This document shows, in pieces, positions 7,399 through 35,103 of a stretch of 64,000 nucleotides of DNA. The DNA comes from a bacterium (GTDB lineage: Bacteria > Chloroflexota > Dormibacteria > Aeolococcales > Bog-877): the NCBI GenBank assembly GCA_021827985.1, contig JAKATL010000007.1:13764-77763 (forward strand), given 5' to 3'. The position numbers and the translations under genes were made by a program. Within the stretch, counting starts at the first letter, position 1. Each line of letters starts with the position of its first letter. A model generated the notes under the pieces. The model was not told the origin of the DNA. It was given only the letters and a program-made list of their open reading frames with translations, and did no database searches.

Positions 7399-8816
7399 TC
7401 CACCTCCTCCTCGTCCGCGGCCCCCGCCCAGAGACACGCTGGCGGCAGCACCAGGACGACCGAGGTCCCCCGTCCCGGAGCGCTGCTCAACTCCACGTGA
7501 CCGCCGTGGCCCTCGACCACGGCCTTGACGATTGCCAGTCCCAGCCCGGCTCCCCGCGGGCCGCCATGGGCCCCCCGGCGGAAGCGGTCGAAGACCGCCT
7601 CCTGGAGCTCGGGGTCGATGCCGGAGCCGGTGTCGGTGACGGAGAGGCGGACCCCTGGCCCGCAGCTCGCGCCCAGGGTGATGGAGTCACCCTCCACGGT
7701 GGCCTTGACCGCGTTGTCCAGCAGGTTGAGCAGGGCGCCGCGGAGCTTGGCTGGATCGACCACCACCACCGCGTCCGGCACCGGATCCAGCACCCAGTGC
7801 CGCGGGGCCAGAACCTGGGCCGCGGCCGAGAGGTCGGCCATGAACGATCTGAGGTCCACCAGCTCACGCTGGATGAAATCAGGCTCCAGGGAGTGTCCCA
7901 GCAGGAGCAGCTGGTCAACCATGGCACTCATCTGGTCCAGCTCTTCCACCACCACGGCAGTCGTCTCCCCCACCTCGACGGGGTCGACGGCGCCGCCCCT
8001 CCGCAGCACCTCGAGGTGTCCCTTGGCGATGGTGAGTGGTGTCCTCAGCTGGTGGGAGACGTCTGAGAGCAGGGCGCGCTGGGCGGCCACGGTCGCCGAG
8101 ATCCGGCCCAGGAGCTCGTCGAACGCCGCTGCCATCCGCCCCACCTCGTCGTCCGCGCCCCGGTATCCCACGCGGCGGGTCAGGTCGCCCGAACTGGCCT
8201 CCACCGCCGTCTGGGTCAGCGCCCCAACGGTGCGCAGCACCCGCCGGAGGATGAGGTAGGCGCTGAGAAGCGCGACCACCAGAGCGACGGCTGCCTCCGC
8301 CGCGGCGAGGAGCGCCACCTGGCCGGTCTCACTCTGGAGGCGGCTCAGGCTGCCGGCGGCGATGATCACTCCGTGGACCTTCCCACCTTCCACGATCGGG
8401 CTGGCCAGCGCGAGATAGGGGGTGGTGCCCAGGGAGAGGTTCAGGGTTCTGGTGCTCCGGGGAGGGTTCAGCAGGGCCTGGCGCACGAGAGGCGCCCTGG
8501 TCATCTCTCCCGCCGCTCCGCTTCCCAGGACCGGTTGGTGGCTGACCGCGATCAGCATCACCTCCCCCGGCGGCAGCGGATGGGTGAGGAGGTAACCCCG
8601 GCTGAAGGCCTCGAGGCTCTGGCCCGGAGGGCGGGTCCCGAAGGAGGCGGCATACCCGCTCAGCTCATCTCCCAGATCCGCTAGGACGGTGTTCTGGTAG
8701 TGGGCTGAGAAGTCTCGGACCACCTGCAGGAGAACGACTCCCAGCACCAGGGCGAGCACAAAGGCATGCAGCAGGAGGAGCCTTGCCGCCGTGCCTAGCC
8801 TCGGAACCCTCAGCAT
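7395..8816 (-). CDS. sensor histidine kinase (2 TM, HAMP, HisKA, HATPase_c)
   Basis: The H-box is LLSDVSHQLRTPLTIAKGHLEVL. N, G1 and G2 boxes follow (LLDNAVKAT, VTDTGSGIDPE, GAGLGLAIVKAVVEGHGG). The N-terminus has TM segments, and the gene is co-oriented and overlapping with the downstream regulator. Confidence 0.9.
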   Translation of the reverse strand: MLRVPRLGTAARLLLLHAFVLALVLGVVLLQVVRDFSAHYQNTVLADLGDELSGYAASFGTRPPGQSLEAFSRGYLLTHPLPPGEVMLIAVSHQPVLGSGAAGEMTRAPLVRQALLNPPRSTRTLNLSLGTTPYLALASPIVEGGKVHGVIIAAGSLSRLQSETGQVALLAAAEAAVALVVALLSAYLILRRVLRTVGALTQTAVEASSGDLTRRVGYRGADDEVGRMAAAFDELLGRISATVAAQRALLSDVSHQLRTPLTIAKGHLEVLRRGGAVDPVEVGETTAVVVEELDQMSAMVDQLLLLGHSLEPDFIQRELVDLRSFMADLSAAAQVLAPRHWVLDPVPDAVVVVDPAKLRGALLNLLDNAVKATVEGDSITLGASCGPGVRLSVTDTGSGIDPELQEAVFDRFRRGAHGGPRGAGLGLAIVKAVVEGHGGHVELSSAPGRGTSVVLVLPPACLWAGAADEEEVE

Positions 8817-8877
8817 CCCACTCGGGCCCGTGCCCACGGCCACCGGCACCCCCGGCGTACCCGGGTATGGGGCGGCC

Positions 8878-9195
8878 TCAGCTGTCGCTGCCAGAGCAGG
8901 AGTCTCCGCCTGGGCAGGTGCCCTTGCCGTCCGTGGACTCCGGGGTGGGCACGGTGATCACCCGGGCGGGAGGAGTCACCGTCTCCACCGGCTCACCCGC
9001 GACCGAGATGCCCGTGTACGGTGACGCCGCCGCCGAAGGATTGCCGGAGCCGAGCCGGACTGCAGACGGAACGCTGCCTGAGCGCAGTGACAGGTTAGGC
9101 CCCAACAGCAGGGCCAGAGCCAGGGCGCATCCCACCGCCAGTGACAGCCAGGCGGTCCTCGGGATGTGGGGTGGCGCCGGGATCCGGTTCAACAA
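8878..9195 (-). CDS. small secreted/membrane-anchored hypothetical protein upstream of the two-component operon
   Basis: 105-aa ORF with a signal anchor (AWLSLAVGCALALALLLG) and a Cys-rich C-terminus (GTCPGGDSCSGSDS). No recognisable domain. Confidence 0.4.
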   Translation of the reverse strand: MLNRIPAPPHIPRTAWLSLAVGCALALALLLGPNLSLRSGSVPSAVRLGSGNPSAAASPYTGISVAGEPVETVTPPARVITVPTPESTDGKGTCPGGDSCSGSDS

Positions 9196-9636
9196 GCGGG
9201 TACCTCCGGGTTGGAGGGTGAGACCAGTCTATGAGTCGATGATTGGCTGAACATTAGATGCATCTCATGTGACCTCGGCCTAGGGGGCGATCCTCCAGCC
9301 TGAGGCGGCCCGGGCCTGGAAGTGGAGTGGAGGCCCCCCGTGACTGCCGACCCGCGGATATCATGGTGCCGAGGGTCACTGCTCCCTCGACCTCCAAGCA
9401 GCCCTCCCGGCTGGATAGTGGTTGCCGTGGGCGACGCGGCAGCCCAGGGAGGTGTCTTGAGTTCTGGGTGGAGTTTTCCTTCGACGAGGATTGGAGCCGG
9501 GCTCCCGCAGATGCTCGTTTCCGGGTACCGTCGGCGCCCTCTGCTGAGGGGAGGGCCGACCCGGGGGTCCCTCGCCCCCCTCGGTCACCACCCAACGCCG
9601 CCATCCCCGGCGCCTACGTGGTCATCCATTTGTGCC

Positions 9637-10362
9637 ACCAACACCCCCGAGGAGATCCGCTTTATCGCGCGGCTGGCGGGACGCTCGGTCGAGGACGTGC
9701 TCCGGCAGCTGCAGGAGGCTGGCCTGGGGACCATGCCAGGCATGGCGGCGGAGATCCTGGTGGAGGAGGTGCGCCGGATCCTGTGTCCGGAGAAGCTGAC
9801 CACAGGCGAGTGGGTGGAGGTGACGCGAGCCGCTCACCGGGTGGGGCTACGCACCACCGCCACAATCATGTACGGTCATGTGGAGACCCCCTGGCACCGG
9901 CTTCAGCATCTGGAGGTGGTCCGCAACCTGCAGCGGGAGACCGGCGGCTTCACGGAGTTCGTGCTGCTGCCCTTTCAGGTGGAGCACAACACTCTGGGCA
10001 AGTACTTTGGGATCCGCCGGCCGCTCACCCCGGAGGACTCGCTGCGCTTCACCGCCTACTGCCGCCTCTATTTCGGGGCCGACAGCCCCAACATCCAGAC
10101 CAGCTGGGTCAAGCTGGGCCCTGCTGGTGTGGCGGAGTCTCGGCGCTGGGGTGCCAACGACTTTGGGGGCACCCTTATGGAGAAGTTGCTTACTCGCATG
10201 AATGGGGCCAACCACGGCCAGAACCCAGAGCCGCAGGAGATCGAGGCGGTGATCCGCTCCGTTGGGCGCACGCCCAAAGAGCGAGACACCGTCTATCGGC
10301 CAGTCGTGAGCAGACCCCGAGACCACGAGCTCGGGCTCGTGAAGTCCGGCGCTCGGTCTTGA
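9637..10362 (+). pseudogene. 3' remnant (~240 aa) of a CofH/FbiC/MqnC-family radical-SAM enzyme; the N-terminal radical-SAM core is missing
   Basis: In-frame segment TPEEIRFIARLAGRSVEDVLRQLQEAGLGTMPGMAAEILVEEVRRILCP...TATIMYGHVETPWHRLQHLEVVRNLQRETGGFTEFVLLPFQ...GANDFGGTLMEKLLTRMNGANHGQNPEPQEIEAVIRSVGRTPKERDTVYR matches only the C-terminal half of CofH/FbiC/MqnC-type enzymes. There is no CxxxCxxC motif and no start codon. The upstream part of the ORF is Arg/Pro-rich non-protein-like sequence. Confidence 0.6.
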
Positions 10363-27391: not shown

Positions 27392-28021
27392 TCAGCGCCG
27401 TCCCGCCCCTGGCGATCGCCCGGCGCGGTGGCGGCGCTGCAGCTCCTCCATGACGTCGGCCAGTTGCAGATCGCGCGCGGTCAGGAGCACGGCCGTGTGA
27501 AACCAGAGGTCGGCCACCTCCGCCACCAACTGCCCCTGGCTGTCCTGGTGGGCGGCCAGGATCACCTCGACCGCCTCCTCGCCGACCTTGCGGGAGATGG
27601 ACGGGATCCCCGCCTCGAGGAGGGCCGCCGTGTAGGAGCCCGGGGGCGGCGCCTGGCGGCGCTGGCGCAGCGTGTCCTGCAGCTGCTCGAGCGTGATACC
27701 GGGCTGGGGGAAGCAGGACCGCCGGCCGAGGTGGCAGGCCGGCCCCTGCGCCCGGACCGAGACCAGGAGCGCGTCGCCGTCGCAGTCGGCCTGGATCGCC
27801 GCCACCAGCATCACCGCTCCGGAGGACTCCCCCTTGCGCCAGAGGCGCTGGCGGCTGCGGCTGTAGAAGTGAGCCTCTCCGGTCTCCGCGGTCAGCTGCA
27901 GCGCCTGGCGATCCATGTAGGCGACCATGAGGACGGCGCCACTGAGCGCGTCTTGGACCACGGCCGGGACCAGACCCGCCCCGTCGAAGCGCACGCCCGC
28001 GGGCACCTTAAGGGTCATAGC
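27392..28021 (-). CDS. hisI: bifunctional phosphoribosyl-AMP cyclohydrolase / phosphoribosyl-ATP pyrophosphatase
   Basis: The HisI part shows [58 protein letters not shown]...DCDGDALLV...[12 protein letters not shown]. The HisE part shows [27 protein letters not shown]...[16 protein letters not shown]. The start was trimmed to MTLKV. Confidence 0.85.
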
Positions 28022-28770
28022 CGTACCTTGACCCCTTCGGAGTGCAGGCGCGCCTTGACCGCTGCCACCGTCCACCGGCCCGAGTGAAAGATGGAGGCAG
28101 CCAGTGCTGCATCGGCGTGGCCGGCGGTGAGCACCGCGACCAGGTCCTCCGGTCCCCCGGCCCCGCCCGAGGCGATCACCGGGATACGCACGCTGTCGGC
28201 GACCGCTCGGGTGAGTTCCAGGTCGTAGCCGCCGGCGCCACCGTCTGCGTCGATGCTGGTCACCAGGAGTTCGCCGGCTCCCAGCCTTTCCAGTTCAGCG
28301 GCCCACCCCAGGGCGTCGAGACCACTGGGGCGGCGGGCCCCATGGGTGTAAACCTCCCAACCCTGCTGGCGGCGCCGCGCGTCGATCGAGACCACCACGC
28401 ACTGAGAGCCGAAGGTCGCGGCCGCGCGGGCGACCAGATCAGGCCTGGCCACGGCGGCGGTCTGCACCCCCACCTTGTCGGCGCCGGCGCGCAGCAGGTC
28501 GCGGAAATCGGACAGGGACCGGACCCCGCCGCCCACCGTGAAGGGGATGGAGAGCTCGCGAGCGACCCGGGTCACCATGTCGAGGGTCGCCGGGCGGCTC
28601 TCGATGGTGGCGTTGACGTCCAGGAGGACCAGTTCATCGGCTCCCTCCTCGGCATAGGCCCGGGCGCGCTCGACCGGGTCTCCCTGGTCTCGCAGACGGC
28701 GGAACTGGATCCCCTTGACCACCCGGCCGTCCGCCACATCCAGGCAGGGTATGACGCGCTTAGCCAGCAT
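28015..28770 (-). CDS. hisF: imidazole glycerol phosphate synthase, cyclase subunit
   Basis: [23 protein letters not shown]...[12 protein letters not shown]...[10 protein letters not shown]...[12 protein letters not shown]...EVYTHGAR...[15 protein letters not shown] is the conserved HisF pattern. Confidence 0.95.
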
Positions 28771-29377
28771 CGAACCCGGGGGCGCTCAGCCCAGCGAAGT
28801 TCCTCAGCAAGCGCAGCCCGGCCGTTCCGCTGCGTTCCGGGTGGAACTGCACCCCGGCCAGCGGGCCGGCGGTCACCGCGCTCACGAAGGACACTCCGTG
28901 GGTGGTGCGGGCGCAGGCCACCTCGCCCGACAGCGGCTCCGCCACGTAGGAGTGGGTGAAGTAGAAGGCCTCACCGTCCACCCCCTCCAGGAGGGCGCTC
29001 CAGCGGGTGCTCTCGACCGTGTTCCAGCCCGTGTGAGGAACCTTCTCCCAGGTGGCGAGGCGCACCACCCGCCCGGGGATGACTCCCAGGCAGGGCTGGC
29101 CGTCCTCCGCACTCCGGTCGAAGAGGAGCTGGAGCCCCAGGCAGATGCCGAGGTACGGTCGGCCCGACCGCAGGAAGGCCTGCAGGGCCGGCAGGAGGCC
29201 GGATGTTCGCAGCCCGGCCATGGCCGCCCCTGCCGCCCCGACCCCGGGGAAGATCAGGGCGTCGACGGCGTCCAGCTGGCTCGGGGTGCGCACCAAGGTC
29301 CAGGCCGTCTCCAGCCGGTCCAGCGCATAACCCACGCTGGCGAGGTTGCCGCCGCCCAGGTCCAGCACTCCGATCAC
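28760..29377 (-). CDS. hisH: imidazole glycerol phosphate synthase, glutamine amidotransferase subunit
   Basis: The class-I glutamine amidotransferase triad context is present ([15 protein letters not shown]...[14 protein letters not shown]...[13 protein letters not shown]...[10 protein letters not shown]). Confidence 0.9.
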
Positions 29378-29964
29378 AGGATCCCCTTGGTGCTGGGGGC
29401 GCGGCCCAGGACCGTGGGATCCCGGCGCACGGCCTCCCGGAGGGCGCGCGCGGTCGCCTTGAAGGCCGCTTCGGCGACGTGGTGGTCGTCGGCGCCGGCT
29501 GCGGTCAGGTGCAGAGTGATCTGGGCGGTGCGCGCCAGCACCTCGAAGAAGTGAGCCAGGAGGGAGGCCGGTATGCCCCCTGCCCCGGGCCCGCTGAGGG
29601 CGATCTTGACCACCCCCAGTCCCCGCCCCGAGCAGTCGACGGCCGCAGCCGCCTGGCTCTCGTCCATCGGCACGACGGCGTGGCCGAAGCGCTCGATTCC
29701 CAGCCGCTCCCCCAGGGCGGCGGCGAACGCCGCTCCCAGCACGGCGGCCACATCCTCCACGGTGTGGTGGCTGTCCACCTGCAGATCGCCTGAGGCGCGC
29801 ACCAGGAGGTCGAAGTGGGCGTGGCGGGCCAGGCTCTCCAGCATGTGGTCGAAGAACCCGATCCCGGTGGCCACCGAGGCGTCCCCGCTGCCATCCAGGG
29901 ACAGGGTCACCGACACCTCGGTCTCCCGGGTCCGCCGCTCCTCGTGAGCTCGCCGCTCATCCAT
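29374..29964 (-). CDS. hisB: imidazoleglycerol-phosphate dehydratase
   Basis: RRTRETEVSVTLSLDGSG...TGIGFFDHMLESLARHAHFDL...DSHHTVEDVAAVLG...HAVVPMDESQAAAAVDCSGR...HHVAEAAFKATARAL carries the HisB metal-binding His/Glu motifs. Confidence 0.9.
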   Translation of the reverse strand: MDERRAHEERRTRETEVSVTLSLDGSGDASVATGIGFFDHMLESLARHAHFDLLVRASGDLQVDSHHTVEDVAAVLGAAFAAALGERLGIERFGHAVVPMDESQAAAAVDCSGRGLGVVKIALSGPGAGGIPASLLAHFFEVLARTAQITLHLTAAGADDHHVAEAAFKATARALREAVRRDPTVLGRAPSTKGIL

Positions 29965-32257
29965 CGCGGCTAGCCCTCCAGCTGGCCAGCCCCTCGAGCA
30001 GCCGCGCGTTCTCCGGCTCGGACCGGATTGTGACCCTCATCCAGCCGCCGAGCGCGTGGGCGGGACCGAAGGCTCGCACCACCAGCCCCCGGGCGGCCAG
30101 GAAGTCGGGGAGCCCGGCGGGGCAGGTGACCAGGAGGAAATTGGCCGCGGACATGCGCACCTGGAACCCCAGCTCCTGAATCTGTCGTTCCAGTGCCCTT
30201 CCCCACCGGCGGAGCTGCAGCACCCTGGCCCGCATCTCCCCCGCCGCCTCCAGGGAGTGCGTGGCGAGCGCGGCCGAGCAGGAGCTCACCCCGGCCGGGG
30301 GCCGGACCCGGGCGAGGGTGGCGGCCAGTTCGGGCCCGGACAGGGCGTAGCCAACCCGCGCCCCGGCCAGCCCGAAGGCCTTGCTCAGAGTGCGGACCAC
30401 GACCAGGTTCGGCAGCTGAAGCACCAGGCCGGCGCTGGTCGCGCCGCTGAACTCGTAGTAGGCCTCGTCGGCCACCACCACGCCGGGGCTGGCCAGGGCG
30501 AGCTCTTCGACGAGGCCAGGGGGGAGCAGGCCGCCAGTCGGGTTGTTGGGGTTGCAGACCCAGGTGAGGCGGGCATGGCGCCCCGCCTCCAGCAGGCGAT
30601 CCGGGCTGTCGGCGGGGACGGTGATGACCTGGCCCCCAGCTGCCTCGGTCAGGACGCGGAACATCGCGTAGCTGGGGTCGGGGATGACGACCGGGTCGAG
30701 GGGCGCGACGTAGGCCGTCGCCACCAGGGAGAGCAACTCGTCGGCCCCGGCGCCGACCGTGATCGCGGAGGAGGGAAGGCCGGTGTAGTCGGCTACGGCC
30801 GAGACCAGGGCGGGGTAGGCGGAATCCGGGTACTCGTGCAGCACCTGAGGCGGCAGGTCCCCCAGGGTGGCGCCCGCCCAAGGGCAGGTGTTGGTGTCGA
30901 AACGCACCACCTCCTCCTCCCTCAGCCCGGCACGGGCCGCTATCTCGGCGCTGGAGGCCTCCCACTCGTAGGGGTGCATGGCGCCGACGCTGCGCCGGGG
31001 GGACGGGGCCGCCCGCTCCGGAGCCGGGGCCGACCCCATCCGCAGCAGGGCCGAGCGCAGGTGGTGGGAGAAGCCCTCGGCGCGGGCCAGCGGCTCGATC
31101 ACCGCCTTCAGGGACGCCAGGCCAGCGGGGGTGATCTCCTGGACCTGCAGGGTGCGCCCGAAGTCGTCCAGGCCCAGAGGGCTGAAGCTGCGCACCGCTC
31201 CCCCCGTCGGGATCACGTGGTTGGCCCCGGTGGCGTAGTCCCCGGCTGCCGCCGGGGAGTGGGAGCCGAGGAACACCGATCCGGCACTCTGGACTCGGGG
31301 CAACCAGCGGCGGGGGTCGCGGCAGGCGAGGATGAGGTGCTCTGGGCCGAAACGGTTGGAGAAGCCCAGCGCCTGCTCGAGCGACTCGGCTCGGTACACC
31401 CTGACCTGAGCCGCCAGCCTCGGGTCCAACAGGCCCCTGACGGCGGCGGCGTGCTCGGGGTCGGTGGAGATGAGAACTCCCAGCGCGTCCGGCGCGTGCT
31501 CCGCCTGGGCTTCCAGGTCGGCGGCCAGCCAGGCCGCGGGAGTGGAGCCGTCACTCACCACCACCACCTCCGAGGGGCCGGCGGGCATGTCCACCGCGAC
31601 CCGGCCGAACACCAGGCGTTTGGCGGCGGTGACGTGGGCATTCCCGGGGCCGAACACCTTGTCCACCGCCGCCAGCGTCTCCGTGCCGAAGGCCATCGCC
31701 GCGATCGCCTGGGCCCCGCCGATGGCGTGGACCTCGGTGGCGCCGGCCAGGCCCGCGGCCGCCAGGATGTGGGGGTGGATCCGCCCGTCCCGGCCCGGCG
31801 GCGCACACAGGACGACCTCCTCGCACCCCGCCAGTCGCGCGGGCGCGCACAGCATGACGACTGAGGAGGGGTAGGGGGCGCGCCCCCCGGGCACGTAGAT
31901 CCCCACCCGACGCAGGGGGCGCCACTCCCGCCACAGCTTCACCCCCGGCCGGACGGACACCTCCTCCTCGGCGAACCGCTGGGCGCATGCCACCCTACTC
32001 AGGTTGGTGGCCGCCGCCTGCAGCGCCTTCACCAGCTCCGCTGGTGCCGCCTGCAGCGCGGCGCTGATCTCCGCCGGCTCGACCCGGCTCTGAGCCACCC
32101 GCACCCCGTCAAACCGCAGGGTGAGTTCTTGGATGGCCCGGTCGCCGCCCCTGCGGACCTGTTCCAGGACGGCGGCGGCCTCCCGTTCCACCTCGGCGGG
32201 GCAACGACTCAGGGGGAGGCGGGAGGGCACGCCGGCCCCCGGGATCTCCTGAATCAA
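29957..32257 (-). CDS. hisD-hisC: in-frame fusion: histidinol dehydrogenase (N-terminal ~440 aa) + histidinol-phosphate aminotransferase (C-terminal ~330 aa)
   Basis: The HisD part carries the NAD- and Zn-binding motifs IYVPGGRAPYPSSVVM, AIGGAQAIAAMAFGTE, FGPGNAHVTAAK, SEVVVVSDG and AEHLIL...GDYATGANHVIPTGG. A ~25-aa linker (MGSAPAPERAAPSPRRSVGAM) follows with no stop codon. The HisC part shows VRFDTNTCPW, the CNPNNPTGG aminotransferase class I/II motif and the PLP lysine context RTLSKAFGLAGARVGYAL. Confidence 0.85.
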   Translation of the reverse strand: MIQEIPGAGVPSRLPLSRCPAEVEREAAAVLEQVRRGGDRAIQELTLRFDGVRVAQSRVEPAEISAALQAAPAELVKALQAAATNLSRVACAQRFAEEEVSVRPGVKLWREWRPLRRVGIYVPGGRAPYPSSVVMLCAPARLAGCEEVVLCAPPGRDGRIHPHILAAAGLAGATEVHAIGGAQAIAAMAFGTETLAAVDKVFGPGNAHVTAAKRLVFGRVAVDMPAGPSEVVVVSDGSTPAAWLAADLEAQAEHAPDALGVLISTDPEHAAAVRGLLDPRLAAQVRVYRAESLEQALGFSNRFGPEHLILACRDPRRWLPRVQSAGSVFLGSHSPAAAGDYATGANHVIPTGGAVRSFSPLGLDDFGRTLQVQEITPAGLASLKAVIEPLARAEGFSHHLRSALLRMGSAPAPERAAPSPRRSVGAMHPYEWEASSAEIAARAGLREEEVVRFDTNTCPWAGATLGDLPPQVLHEYPDSAYPALVSAVADYTGLPSSAITVGAGADELLSLVATAYVAPLDPVVIPDPSYAMFRVLTEAAGGQVITVPADSPDRLLEAGRHARLTWVCNPNNPTGGLLPPGLVEELALASPGVVVADEAYYEFSGATSAGLVLQLPNLVVVRTLSKAFGLAGARVGYALSGPELAATLARVRPPAGVSSCSAALATHSLEAAGEMRARVLQLRRWGRALERQIQELGFQVRMSAANFLLVTCPAGLPDFLAARGLVVRAFGPAHALGGWMRVTIRSEPENARLLEGLASWRASRDG

Positions 32258-33141
32258 GGGATCAGCTTCTCGATCGGGAGCACCAGGATCGACGACGCCC
32301 CGGCCGCCTGCAGCGGACCCAGCTGCTGCCAGACGGTGTCGGCGTCCACCACCGTGTGGATCGCCACCATGCCGGGGTCGGTCAGGTGGATCACCGAGGG
32401 AGATCTCATCCCCGGCACCACCTTTTTGATCCTGTCCACCGCCTCGGCGGGGGCATTCATCATGAGGTACTTGCGGTGCCGCGCCCTGATGACGCTGGTG
32501 AGCATGAGCGCCACCTGCCCGGCGAGGTGATGGCGCGCCGGTCTCAGTTCGCGGGTGCGGACCAGTTCGGCCTGGGAGTCCAGGATGGCGTCCAGGGCCA
32601 CGAGCCCGTTGGTGGCCAGGGTGCTGCCGCTCGCCACCAGGTCGACGACGGCGTCGGCGACGCCCAGCAACGGGGTGACCTCCACCGCCCCTGTGATCTC
32701 AATCAGCCGCACCTCGACCCCCCTTTCCAGGAAGAACCGGGAGCTCACCTTGGGGTGGGAGGTGGCCACCACCCGGCCTCTGAGGTCCTCCGCCCCGGTG
32801 ATCCCACTGTCGCGCGGGGCTGCCAGTTGCAGCCGGCAGCGACCGAAGCCGAGGGGCTCGATCCGGGTCACGTCGACGCCGGCCTCTAGGAGCAGGTTGG
32901 AGCCGGTTATGCCCAGGTCGACCACCCCGTCCTGGACGTACTCGCCGATGTCGTCGGCCCGCAAGAACAGCAGGTCGAGGGGAAAGTTCTCGCAGGGAAC
33001 GAAGAGGCGGCGTTCGTCCTCCTCGAAGGTGAAGCCGGCCTCCCGGAGCAGGGAAACCGCGGGCTGGCAGAGCCGACCTTTGTTGGGCACCGCCAGCCGC
33101 AGCCGGTCGTCGGGGGCGGCGGCTGAAGTCAACGCCGCCAC
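32254..33141 (-). CDS. hisG: ATP phosphoribosyltransferase, long form with C-terminal regulatory domain
   Basis: LRLAVPNKGRL...DLLFLRADDIGEYVQDGVVDLGITGSNLLLE...LVASGSTLATNGL followed by the HisG C-terminal ACT-like domain. Confidence 0.9.
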   Translation of the reverse strand: MAALTSAAAPDDRLRLAVPNKGRLCQPAVSLLREAGFTFEEDERRLFVPCENFPLDLLFLRADDIGEYVQDGVVDLGITGSNLLLEAGVDVTRIEPLGFGRCRLQLAAPRDSGITGAEDLRGRVVATSHPKVSSRFFLERGVEVRLIEITGAVEVTPLLGVADAVVDLVASGSTLATNGLVALDAILDSQAELVRTRELRPARHHLAGQVALMLTSVIRARHRKYLMMNAPAEAVDRIKKVVPGMRSPSVIHLTDPGMVAIHTVVDADTVWQQLGPLQAAGASSILVLPIEKLIP

Positions 33142-33443
33142 CGGTCGAGCATCTTGCGGTAGCCACCCCGGCCGAAGCGCAGCCAGGTGTTGACCCGGCT
33201 GATGGTGGCAGGGCTGGCGCCCGTCTGGGCCGCGATCGCCTGATAGTGGAGGCCCTGGTCGAGCATGCGCGCCACCTGCCAGCGGGTGCTCAGGGCCTGC
33301 AGCTCCTGGGCCGTGCAGAGATCGCGCAGGAAGTCGGCCGTCTCCTCGGCCGAGGCGAGCTGCGCGATCGCCTCGAAGAGCTCGCGGGTGGCGGGGTTGG
33401 TGAGTTCGGGAGGAGGGGGGGCGAAGCTGGCTTGCTTCATCAT
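33129..33443 (-). CDS. TrpR-like YerC/YecD-family DNA-binding protein, first gene of the minus-strand his operon
   Basis: ELFEAIAQLASAEETADFLRDLCTAQELQALSTRWQVARMLDQGLHYQAIAAQTGASPATISRVNTWLRFGRGGYRKMLD matches the YerC/YecD family nearly residue-for-residue in the conserved core (ELQALxxRWQVAxMLxxGLxYxxIAxxTGASxATISRVN...GxGGY). It overlaps the hisG start by 13 nt. Confidence 0.8.
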   Translation of the reverse strand: MMKQASFAPPPPELTNPATRELFEAIAQLASAEETADFLRDLCTAQELQALSTRWQVARMLDQGLHYQAIAAQTGASPATISRVNTWLRFGRGGYRKMLDRWRR

Positions 33444-33460
33444 GCTAGCATGATATCATG
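33439..33460. promoter_or_regulatory. perfect 16-bp palindrome ATCATGCTAGCATGAT plus a third ATCATG half-site, overlapping the yerC-like start codon in the divergent his promoter region
   Basis: Seen directly as ATCATGCTAGCATGATATCATG within the only strongly AT-rich stretch for kilobases (followed by TTATTTGAGAGG). It lies between the divergent yerC-like/hisG... operon and hisA. Confidence 0.5.
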
Positions 33461-33471
33461 TTATTTGAGAG

Positions 33472-34191
33472 GTGCGCGGATTGCTGGTGATCCCGGCCGT
33501 CGACGTCCTCGACGGTGCGGCGGTGCGCCTGGTGCAGGGCAGGTATGACCGGGTGCTTCGAGCTGAGCTCGGCCCTCTGCAGATGGCGCGGCGGTTCGCC
33601 GACCAGGGCGCCCGCTGGCTCCACGTGATCGACCTGGATGGGGCGCGCGCCGGCCGGTGGCACAACCTGGAGCTGATCGGGCGCATCGCTGCCGAGGTGG
33701 GCGCTCGGGTGCAGGCCGGTGGCGGAGCCAGGAGCCGGGAGGGCATCCGCGCCGCCCTGGAGGCCGGAGTCAGCCGTGTCATCATCTCGACCGCGGCCCT
33801 GGGCGATCCCCACGAGTTCAGTGCCCTGGCAGCGGAGTTCGGCCAGAGCCTGGTGGTAGGGCTCGATGCCCGCGGCGGACACCTCCTGGCGCGGGGGTGG
33901 GAGGTCGACACCCACCTGGAGCTGGGATCGGCCGCCAGATCGCTGGTCGACCTCGGGGCGCGTCGGCTGCTCTACACCGACACCCAGCGTGACGGGATGC
34001 TCTCCGGGGTTGACGCGGAGGTGGTGCCGGAACTGGTGCGACTGGGAGTCCCGGTGATGGTGGCGGGCGGCGTCCGGGACCCCGCGGACCTGGTCCGCTT
34101 GCGGGAGGCGGGGGCGGAGGCCGCCATCGTGGGACGCGCCCTGCTGGAAGGCACCCTGGACCTGGCTGAGGCGCTGGCCCTATATGCGTGA
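33472..34191 (+). CDS. hisA: 1-(5-phosphoribosyl)-5-[(5-phosphoribosylamino)methylideneamino]imidazole-4-carboxamide isomerase (HisA; possibly PriA-type)
   Basis: LLVIPAVDVLDGAAVRLVQGRYD...LHVIDLDGARAG...RVQAGGGARS...VIISTAAL...LVVGLDARGG...GW...RRLLYTDTQRDGMLSGVD...PVMVAGGVRD. GTG/TTG start region. Divergent from the yerC-hisG operon. Confidence 0.9.
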   Translation: MRGLLVIPAVDVLDGAAVRLVQGRYDRVLRAELGPLQMARRFADQGARWLHVIDLDGARAGRWHNLELIGRIAAEVGARVQAGGGARSREGIRAALEAGVSRVIISTAALGDPHEFSALAAEFGQSLVVGLDARGGHLLARGWEVDTHLELGSAARSLVDLGARRLLYTDTQRDGMLSGVDAEVVPELVRLGVPVMVAGGVRDPADLVRLREAGAEAAIVGRALLEGTLDLAEALALYA

Positions 34192-34263
34192 GTCGTTGCG
34201 GAGCGGGGCTGGGAGCCCGTCTGCCATGGAGCTGGCCGCCCCCCTTGCCTGGAACTGCCGCCG

Positions 34264-35103
34264 GTGAGCCCTGGTGCGGGCGGCGTCGATCTTCACGTCC
34301 ACAGTGAGTGGTCGTGGGATGCCCCCGGGGGGTCGATGCGGGAGACCTGCGTTCGTGCCCAGAGTCTGGGCCTGCAGGTGGTCGCCTTCACCGACCACGC
34401 CGACCACACCGCCATCGCCGGTGGCCGCCACCTCGACCTCGCTGGCTACCGCGAAAGCCTCGCTCGGTGCCGCCGGGCGTTTCCCCGGCTGGCCATCTGG
34501 AGCGGCGCGGAGCTGGGGGAGCCGCACCGCTTCCCGGTGGAGACGGCGGAGCTGCTGGCTCAGGGGGACTTCGACCTGGTTCTGGGATCCGTGCACGCCA
34601 TCGAGGTCGGGGGCCGGCTCGAGGATTGCAGCATGGGGCCGGGCGGACAGGGGAGCGACCCGGTGGCCTGGATGAGGCTCTACTGGGGCGAGACCCTGCG
34701 CCTGCTGGAGTCCGCCGGTTCATTCCAGGTTCTGGCCCATCTGGAGTACCCCAAGCGATACTGGCCATCTGGCGGGCAGCCGTACCGGGCCGCCGACTAC
34801 CGAGAGGAGATCCAGACGGTGCTGGAGCAGGCAGCGCGCTGCGAGCTGATCCTGGAGATCAACAGCAGCGCAGGTTTGGAGCCGGAGCGGGGGCTGTGCC
34901 CTGGACCGGAGGTCGTTCGCTGGTGGCGTGCCGCCGGTGGCCGCGCCGTGTCGGTGGGGAGCGACGCGCACCGGCCCGGTGCCGTCGGAAGGGGCCTGGA
35001 TCGGGCGCTGGAGGCGGCGGCCTGGGCTGGGTTCACCTCCGGCCAGATTCTGGGCGGCACCCTCGCCGCCCGCCCCTTAAGTCTCGACGGCCCTCCGTGG
35101 TGA
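34264..35103 (+). CDS. hisJ: PHP-family histidinol-phosphatase
   Basis: The PHP domain metal-binding motifs are present (VDLHVHSEWSWD, VVAFTDHADH, LVLGSVHAIE, VLAHLEYP, VSVGSDAHRPGAVG). GTG start. It lies between hisA and the class-III aminotransferase. Confidence 0.8.
   Translation: MSPGAGGVDLHVHSEWSWDAPGGSMRETCVRAQSLGLQVVAFTDHADHTAIAGGRHLDLAGYRESLARCRRAFPRLAIWSGAELGEPHRFPVETAELLAQGDFDLVLGSVHAIEVGGRLEDCSMGPGGQGSDPVAWMRLYWGETLRLLESAGSFQVLAHLEYPKRYWPSGGQPYRAADYREEIQTVLEQAARCELILEINSSAGLEPERGLCPGPEVVRWWRAAGGRAVSVGSDAHRPGAVGRGLDRALEAAAWAGFTSGQILGGTLAARPLSLDGPPW

Follow-up and report, generated by a model that had tools for sequence, protein, structure and literature searches.

Histidine biosynthesis is the textbook model of gene fusion shaping metabolic pathways. 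In a 64-kb stretch of contig JAKATL010000007.1 (the window; GC content about 70%), one open reading frame (ORF) of the histidine operon codes for histidinol dehydrogenase (HisD) followed by a protein of the histidinol-phosphate aminotransferase (HisC) type. This hisD::hisC gene lies on the minus strand, a detail absent from the first-pass annotation of this DNA. It is composed of the following parts:

29957..32257, minus strand: hisD::hisC fused ORF, 766 codons plus stop, TTG start
31037..32194, minus strand: HisD (histidinol dehydrogenase) domain, residues 22-407, matched by PF00815 and TIGR00069
31007..31039, minus strand: linker MGSAPAPERAA, residues 407-417, free in sequence and constrained in length
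29960..31006, minus strand: HisC-type (histidinol-phosphate aminotransferase) domain, residues 418-766, native N-terminal arm included
30977..30979, minus strand: ATG of Met427, proposed internal start

One reading frame with two complete domains

A complete HisD followed by a complete HisC-type aminotransferase is observed directly in one ORF. Its TTG start overlaps the stop codon of hisG (TTGA) and its stop codon overlaps the ATG of hisB (ATGGATGA). The N-terminal half matches the Pfam family Histidinol_dh (PF00815) with residues 22-407 (profile positions 10-411 of 411, 442 bits) and the NCBIfam family TIGR00069 (hisD) with 427.5 bits, compared to a cut-off of 243.8. Pfam Aminotran_1_2 covers residues 471-756, and the best aminotransferase family of NCBIfam is TIGR01141 (hisC), which aligns to residues 422-758 with positions 2-347 of its 349 (236.9 bits); the HisC domain downstream of HisD is complete, as had been claimed. 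Neither the sequence nor a scan of G+C content at third codon positions (GC3) revealed a stop codon or change of frame within the 766 codons, in-frame GC3 being 0.85-0.97 for all 60-codon segments, including those at the junction (381-441). No bifunctional model occurs among the 25 best of 55 matched NCBIfam families, within which a full-length model of this kind would have ranked. The in-frame fusion of 766 amino acids reported by the first-pass annotation is borne out by the single ORF, the two full-length domains, the unbroken GC3 frame and about 90 sequence clusters of the same build.

Active sites of both halves can be followed residue by residue. Alignment with E. coli HisD (1K75) equates Q251, H254, E306, H307, D340, H347, E394 and H399 of the fused protein with Q259, H262, E326, H327, D360, H367, E414 and H419. 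We take the zinc ligands of the E. coli enzyme to be Q259, H262, D360 and H419', and its catalytic pair to be E326/H327 (1KAE structure). The corresponding positions (Q251, H254, D340, H399, E306 and H307) show no variation among 70 fused proteins of several lineages, and the remaining aligned residues are invariant or nearly so. The nicotinamide adenine dinucleotide (NAD) and zinc motifs noticed earlier are present, with all E. coli zinc and catalytic residues matched. In the C-terminal half, whose best PDB matches are all HisC, Y476, D506, N572, D597, Y600, K626, R634, R728 and R741 align with Y55, D85, N157, D184, Y187, K214, R222, R322 and R335 of E. coli HisC (1FG3); E. coli Y110 likewise meets an identical residue, and Y20 corresponds to Y430 in a PY motif. 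Presumably K214, D184, Y187, N157, R222, Y55' and D85 comprise the lysine that carries pyridoxal phosphate (PLP) and the PLP-binding residues of the E. coli enzyme, while Y20, R322 and R335 presumably bind the substrate phosphate (1FG3/1GEW structures). These PLP and substrate-phosphate positions are invariant or nearly so in the same 70 proteins. With both domains full length and both active sites intact, the gene joins non-consecutive steps of the pathway, step 7 with steps 9/10, in agreement with the first reading.

Conservation and anatomy of the junction

Exactly the same protein is encoded on three other contigs (Logan and ENA assemblies). About 99 clusters, formed at 90% identity, contain both Pfam domains and are 53-84% identical to the window protein; 90 of them are full length. 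All named clusters are assigned to Candidatus Dormibacteraeota, Dormibacteria, Dormibacterales or Dormibacteraceae, except for one labelled Nanopelagicaceae; the phylum is Candidatus Dormiibacterota (taxid 2052312). Two labelled Dormiibacterota metagenome-assembled genomes (MAGs), both species representatives (L002, L003), carry the fusion in one ORF. The gene order yerC-hisG-hisD::hisC-hisB-hisH-hisF-hisIE is kept in these and in a third locus, L001, and the layout of the window is the same, with a PHP-family gene and hisA divergent. The fusion is shared by related genomes, both as about 90 independent full-length clusters and as syntenic operons of Dormiibacterota MAGs. We define the Dormiibacterota-type HisD::HisC family by HisD followed by HisC in one ORF, 31-32 residues from His399 to Tyr430, an arm of the form P-x-P-R...PYxWE and the neighbourhood yerC-hisG-hisD::C-hisB; the window protein displays all of these features.

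Two family members bear foreign labels. L001 (DATNNA010000170.1) was binned as 'Candidatus Binatus sp.' and has the Dormiibacterota-type gene in the same operon; P0011, labelled 'Candidatus Nanopelagicaceae', also has a Dormiibacterota-type hisD::hisC (58-63% identity for the two). Mis-binning or mislabelling is the probable cause, horizontal transfer a possible one.

A fusion of this kind could be mimicked by an artefact, in which an indel near an overlapping stop and start merges separate hisD and hisC genes in sequencing or assembly. In 68 of 80 labelled loci the two genes lie side by side in different frames, and there a single indel would suffice; among the loci discussed below one apparent fusion (L080) is a false positive and another (L029) is frameshifted inside HisC. 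Such an origin does not agree with the identical protein on three other contigs, nor with some 90 full-length clusters that keep the same frame and junction length down to 53% identity. GC3 is continuous, and the HisD tail and the HisC arm are both in frame, with invariant residues on either side of the junction. An artefact is effectively refuted, and the chance that one has produced the window gene is negligible.

The junction itself is compact. Alignment with E. coli HisD extends to residue 408, and the E. coli protein terminates six residues further on. Among the 90 family members only positions 407-417 vary freely (9-14 different residues at each), bordered by invariant R406 and P418; Y430, W432 and E433 are invariant too, and R421 is nearly so. 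In 88 of the 90, Tyr430 follows the zinc ligand His399 at a distance of 31-32 residues. The HisC arm reads P418-x-P-R...M427-H-P-Y430-E-W-E, and stand-alone HisC proteins of the same subtype start upstream of P-x-P-R: the genes L049 and P0205 begin 13-24 residues before MxPYxWE and include this arm. The fusion essentially consists of the HisD C-terminal tail, a length-constrained coil of about 11 residues and the HisC N-terminal arm. The linker of about 25 amino acids described in the first-pass annotation has to be shortened to a real spacer of about 11 residues (407-417), the remainder being native HisC sequence, and its "linker Met" is part of the N-terminal arm of HisC, where the conserved Tyr430 (Tyr20 in E. 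coli) follows three residues later.

An AlphaFold2 (AF2) model based on the 70-sequence alignment has a mean predicted local distance difference test (pLDDT) value of 90.4 and a predicted template modelling score of 0.80, with both domains well folded; junction residues 408-421 are modelled as coil with pLDDT of about 77. Our search found no PDB chain with both HisD and HisC domains. The fixed length of the linker hints at a defined quaternary arrangement.

It had further been suggested that hisC is also initiated internally, at the Met of MHPYEWE. This is unlikely: the Met is not conserved, it is present inside stand-alone HisC too, and no Shine-Dalgarno (SD)-like match precedes it. Of the 90 family members, 77 have M at residue 427 and 13 have L, A, T or G; in fused proteins of other lineages the position is taken by L, V, I or S, and it matches a hydrophobic one in the "NLTPY" arm of E. 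coli. Because stand-alone HisC of this subtype has the Met 13-24 residues inside the protein, Met427 is best understood as a structural residue of the N-terminal arm. The 20 nt upstream of it pair with the anti-SD sequence at -1.7 kcal/mol, compared to a background mean of -4.5 in the ORF, -9.8 for hisB and -7.6 for hisH. Since several operon genes (hisG, hisF and hisA) also have no recognisable SD, this value serves as supporting evidence only.

The broader proposal, that the one ORF yields the full-length protein together with a separate HisC, made by initiation at Met427 or by proteolysis in the linker, draws on the prevalence of Met427, on the limited weight of a missing SD in this operon and on the exposed coil that AF2 predicts for the linker. 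Replacement of Met427 in 13 of 90 members and in other fused lineages, the loss of the conserved P418-x-P-R arm that a start there would bring about, an anti-SD duplex weaker than the ORF background and the lack of any promoter-like site in the operon all count against two products, which we regard as quite improbable. An in-frame GTG at residue 450 (30908-30934, minus strand) was rejected as a start, as it would delete the conserved Tyr430 arm; the strong SD-like GGGAGGAGG upstream of it (-11.5 kcal/mol) probably owes its existence to EEE codons.

The histidine operon and its variants

The remaining histidine genes surround the fusion:

33129..33443, minus strand: yerC/yecD (HisR-like, TrpR family), first gene of the operon; TIGR02531, 87.7 bits, cut-off 42.2
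32254..33141, minus strand: hisG, long form with C-terminal regulatory domain; TIGR00070 187 bits, TIGR03455 88 bits
29374..29964, minus strand: hisB, imidazoleglycerol-phosphate dehydratase (IGPD) only, without phosphatase domain; NF002111, 242.8 bits
27392..29377, minus strand: hisH, hisF and hisIE, overlapping or abutting; TIGR01855, TIGR00735 and NF002747, all above cut-offs
33472..35103, plus strand: divergent hisA and PHP-family candidate histidinol-phosphatase; hisA TIGR00007 226.5 bits, cut-off 228.95
34264-35103, plus strand: PHP-family protein, only candidate for step 8; matches the HisJ family TIGR01856 end to end with 72.9 bits, below the cut-off of 90.2

All other steps of the pathway are encoded within 27392-35103, and the fused domain pair fills the hisC slot of a tightly packed operon, the start of hisB overlapping the hisD::hisC stop by 8 nt and being preceded by a good SD (GGAGGG). 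Step 8, assigned to the PHP candidate, falls between the two fused activities in the pathway; the hisA/PHP arrangement is kept in L002. No second hisC or hisD exists in the 64-kb window. Taken together with the conserved residues and the genes for all other steps, this leads us to infer that histidinol dehydrogenase and histidinol-phosphate aminotransferase activities both reside in the fused polypeptide. For the HisD half, sequence predicts NAD-dependent oxidation of histidinol to histidine (EC 1.1.1.23). The HisC half scores below the curated TIGR01141 equivalog cut-off (236.9 vs 276.55 bits), so that strict equivalog membership (EC 2.6.1.9) is not reached by score and its substrate specificity has to be deduced from residues and context.

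This shortfall leaves room for the view that the C-terminal aminotransferase is a diverged paralog, for example aromatic or CobD-like, and that the true HisC is encoded elsewhere. The CobD family TIGR01140 is second best with 194.7 bits, and stand-alone copies of the same HisC subtype occur outside histidine operons (L049). The best match over the full length is nevertheless TIGR01141, the best PDB matches point the same way, and the substrate-phosphate residues (E. coli Y20, R322 and R335) are kept. Moreover, the domain sits in the canonical hisC slot between hisD and hisB of an operon that encodes every other step, and L081 and L091, whose operons have no HisC domain, are lineages where a stand-alone copy is expected. 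A paralog with another function is in our opinion very unlikely.

The stand-alone gene of L049 (7905-9059, from a 'Ca. Dormibacter sp.' MAG) is 51% identical to the HisC half of the window protein, has the arm PxPRxxIxxMHPYEWE and adjoins a cation-efflux gene outside any histidine operon. Stand-alone HisC of this subtype (L049, P0205) is what lineages losing the HisC module would need.

Operons of the clade come in three forms. In the window and most relatives the order is hisG-hisD::hisC-hisB. L091 (7001-8831; P0283) has hisG-hisD-hisB, with a separate hisD of 417 codons that overlaps hisB by 17 nt and no hisC in the operon. In L081 and L082 (both 8001-9845; P0118, P0113 and P0281), hisD is fused to hisB instead, giving HisD-IGPD proteins of 614-618 amino acids without a HisC domain; only 3 clusters have this rare fusion, the HisD part of which shares 65-70% identity with that of a 775-residue HisD::HisC family. 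HisD::IGPD resembles the window gene in operon skeleton and in fusion of the HisD C-terminus to the next gene, and differs in having HisB as partner, in lacking HisC and in being nested within the HisD::HisC clade. In the HisD tree the latter two operon forms, stand-alone hisD (P0100, P0101) and HisD-like paralogs are nested among fused sequences, and the two forms group with the 775-residue family apart from the subgroup of the window with a bootstrap of 98/100. Most parsimoniously, the genes fused once, long ago, and the HisC module was later lost a few times; in one of the lineages without it, hisD then fused to hisB. Relatives with two separate genes, which the first-pass annotation would have counted against a fusion, do exist in small number, but they are derived and lie inside the fused clade.

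Stand-alone "HisD" relatives of about 410 amino acids were discarded as evidence for separate genes, being paralogs in an unrelated gene cluster. In Dormiibacterota-labelled MAGs (L083 8001-9311 and L088 7001-8230; P0104, P0308) such a second HisD-like protein has 409-436 amino acids and is about 58-60% identical. Its gene lies outside any histidine operon, in a conserved cluster together with an acetyltransferase, two PNPOx-like genes, a class-III aminotransferase and an aldehyde dehydrogenase; the HisD family also includes sulfopropanediol dehydrogenases.

Some further features of the locus concern regulation. The position of yerC is the same in L002, L003, L081, L091 and L033, and the YerC/YecD family has been identified as the histidine repressor HisR of Gram-positive bacteria (PMC9413887). 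A perfect 16-bp palindrome, ATCATGCTAGCATGAT, occupies positions 33439-33454, between hisA and the yerC-like gene, which are 28 bp apart, and extends into the ATG of the latter; it is AT-rich in a genome of 70% GC and unique in the 64-kb window. L002, L003, L081/L082 and L091 each have a single related TGCTAGCATGCTAA element at the corresponding position. Located by eye and by regular expression, the palindrome is a candidate HisR operator in Dormiibacterota. An Rfam scan of the whole window returned no T-box, his leader or rRNA, and no promoter-like or terminator-like sites were found inside the operon. The hisIE ORF (27392-28075, minus strand) has a GTG start overlapping hisF by about 60 nt; as the first residues to match the profile are 23-28, translation probably begins downstream of this GTG.

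Fusions in other phyla, origin and meaning

We searched 1.84 billion representatives at 50% identity exhaustively and examined the best 150 matches. At least 78 of these have HisD followed by HisC in one protein, with spacers of widely varying length, and none of the 150 has the reverse order. One-ORF fusions in canonical hisG-D::C-B-H-A-F-IE operons were seen in Ktedonobacteria, Blastocatellaceae, Gemmatimonadetes, Proteobacteria and Actinomyces-labelled MAGs. When a fused protein of Planctomycetes served as query, all 120 top matches were fused, some of them on contigs of 2-3 Mb, with Longimicrobiales, Gemmatimonadota, Blastocatellia, Actinomycetota and Deltaproteobacteria among the names. 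Labels of fusion-bearing MAGs comprise Gemmatimonadota, Acidobacteriota, Chloroflexota, Actinomycetota, Planctomycetes and Deltaproteobacteria. After a check of frames, the labelled loci include 8 fused cases and 1 ambiguous. L080 (7901-10333, Lysobacter sp. Root916) was rejected as a fusion: its 2.4-kb open frame, in high-GC DNA, differs from the hisD frame, and the genes are merely adjacent. In L029 (7725-10937, a Chloroflexia MAG) the frame that reads HisD covers only two thirds of HisC, the rest lying in a different frame; the locus holds an assembly error or a pseudogene. Two larger proteins were also encountered: P0150 (1001 amino acids) is HisD-HisC-IGPD, in operon order, and P0219 (1501 amino acids) unites His_biosynth (HisA/F), PRA-CH, PRA-PH, HisD, HisC and a HAD hydrolase in a single protein.

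Fusions of other phyla share domain order and operon position with the window gene, but are only 33-46% identical to it, have other linker lengths and carry a different HisC N-terminal type (PYSSARDEY...LDANENP vs PYEWE...RFDTNT in Dormiibacterota); they probably arose independently. The fused state is scattered on a neighbour-joining (NJ) tree of HisD, with a minimum of 47 changes, which together with the differing N-terminal types indicates many independent origins. Repeated origin is plausible, because hisD and hisC are adjacent in most of the loci sampled.

Known fusions of histidine genes are hisIE, hisNB, hisHF/HIS7 and HIS4 (PMC1963479, PMC8305728, PMC10138114). The fusions listed in these three papers do not include hisC, and PMC1963479 never mentions it as a separate gene name. 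Fungal HIS4 (HisI-HisE-HisD) likewise has a variable linker between HisD and enzymes that act at non-consecutive steps (PMC1963479); there HisD is C-terminal, its partners are HisI and HisE, and the protein is eukaryotic, whereas in the window HisD is N-terminal, its partner is HisC, and the gene is bacterial and embedded in an operon. Bacterial hisNB is similar to the present case in uniting neighbouring operon genes for non-consecutive steps, 8 and 6, in a restricted lineage (PMC8305728). These steps flank step 7 of HisC; the monofunctional hisB of the window, unlike hisNB, codes for IGPD alone, and the PHP-family protein is the one assigned to step 8. Fusion across non-consecutive steps is not unusual in this pathway, as hisNB (steps 8 and 6) and HIS4 (steps 2, 3, 9 and 10) illustrate. 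Compared to the separate homodimers of E. coli, HisD (1K75/1KAE) and HisC (1FG3/1GEW), both halves align end to end and keep all active-site residues; the difference is that they form one chain, in which the swapped C-terminal element of HisD is tethered by about 11 residues to the crossing N-terminal arm of HisC. Our full-text literature searches found no description of a hisD-hisC fusion, and source entries are called "histidinol dehydrogenase" or "histidinol-phosphate aminotransferase", never bifunctional. HisD-HisC fusions are common in sequence databases, but have drawn no comment and carry the name of a single half.

We propose that hisD::hisC codes for a single bifunctional polypeptide that provides 1:1 co-synthesis and co-assembly of two dimeric enzymes, and we consider this very likely. 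The fusion would have had a single origin early in Dormiibacterota, when hisD and hisC, neighbours in a hisG-D-C-B operon, lost the stop/start boundary that divided them, and would have been retained since then, although the HisC module disappeared again in a few lineages. Both halves may work in the manner of the separate enzymes, HisD as a zinc- and NAD-dependent, domain-swapped homodimer and HisC as a PLP-dependent homodimer with a crossing N-terminal arm. The fusion would enforce 1:1 synthesis and co-assembly; direct substrate channelling is not to be expected, since the intervening step 8 falls to a PHP-family phosphatase with a gene of its own. Comparable fusions have probably arisen repeatedly in other phyla, hisD and hisC being next to each other as a rule.

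Several points weigh against this reading: the shortfall of the HisC half against the TIGR01141 cut-off; the crudeness of NJ trees, which makes the 47 state changes an upper-leaning estimate of independent origins; the chance that some singleton metagenomic fusions are indel artefacts, such as L029; and the quaternary arrangement and selective advantage of the fusion, both of which we only infer.

A more far-reaching possibility, compatible with a bifunctional polypeptide, is that the fusion is an adaptive scaffold, in which the PHP phosphatase is drawn to a HisD2-HisC2 assembly and steps 7-10 thereby work as a metabolon. The length-locked tether might then build a closed HisD2-HisC2 particle that docks the PHP histidinol-phosphatase and turns the last four steps into one metabolon in Dormiibacterota, and the HisD-HisC(-HAD/-IGPD) fusions of many phyla might be independent solutions to the same need, e.g. 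sequestering histidinol or histidinal. The fixed linker length across the phylum, the conserved PHP phosphatase gene beside the operon and the joining of HisD-HisC with a HAD phosphatase-like domain (P0219) or IGPD (P0150) would fit. Gene adjacency and tolerance explain repeated origin equally well, and close relatives have dropped the HisC module while keeping the operon. We regard a scaffold, and the closed particle with its metabolon likewise, as unlikely.

Our results support a fusion that is real, ancient and conserved, and so the main interpretation of the first-pass annotation. Viewed soberly, it consists of well-known enzymes, adjacent genes and a lost stop codon, with a modest bearing on the evolution of the histidine pathway and on annotation practice. 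It nevertheless adds hisC, not previously counted there, to the fusing histidine genes. In an uncultured soil phylum the HisD-HisC fusion has become fixed; no fewer than five other phyla have it too, and it can be lost secondarily or give way to HisD-HisB. Since the names refer to one half only, hisC (or hisD) may be counted as absent from these genomes in automated reconstructions of the pathway. The fusion is, moreover, a natural experiment on whether two homodimeric enzymes that catalyse non-consecutive steps gain anything in kinetics or assembly from being joined.

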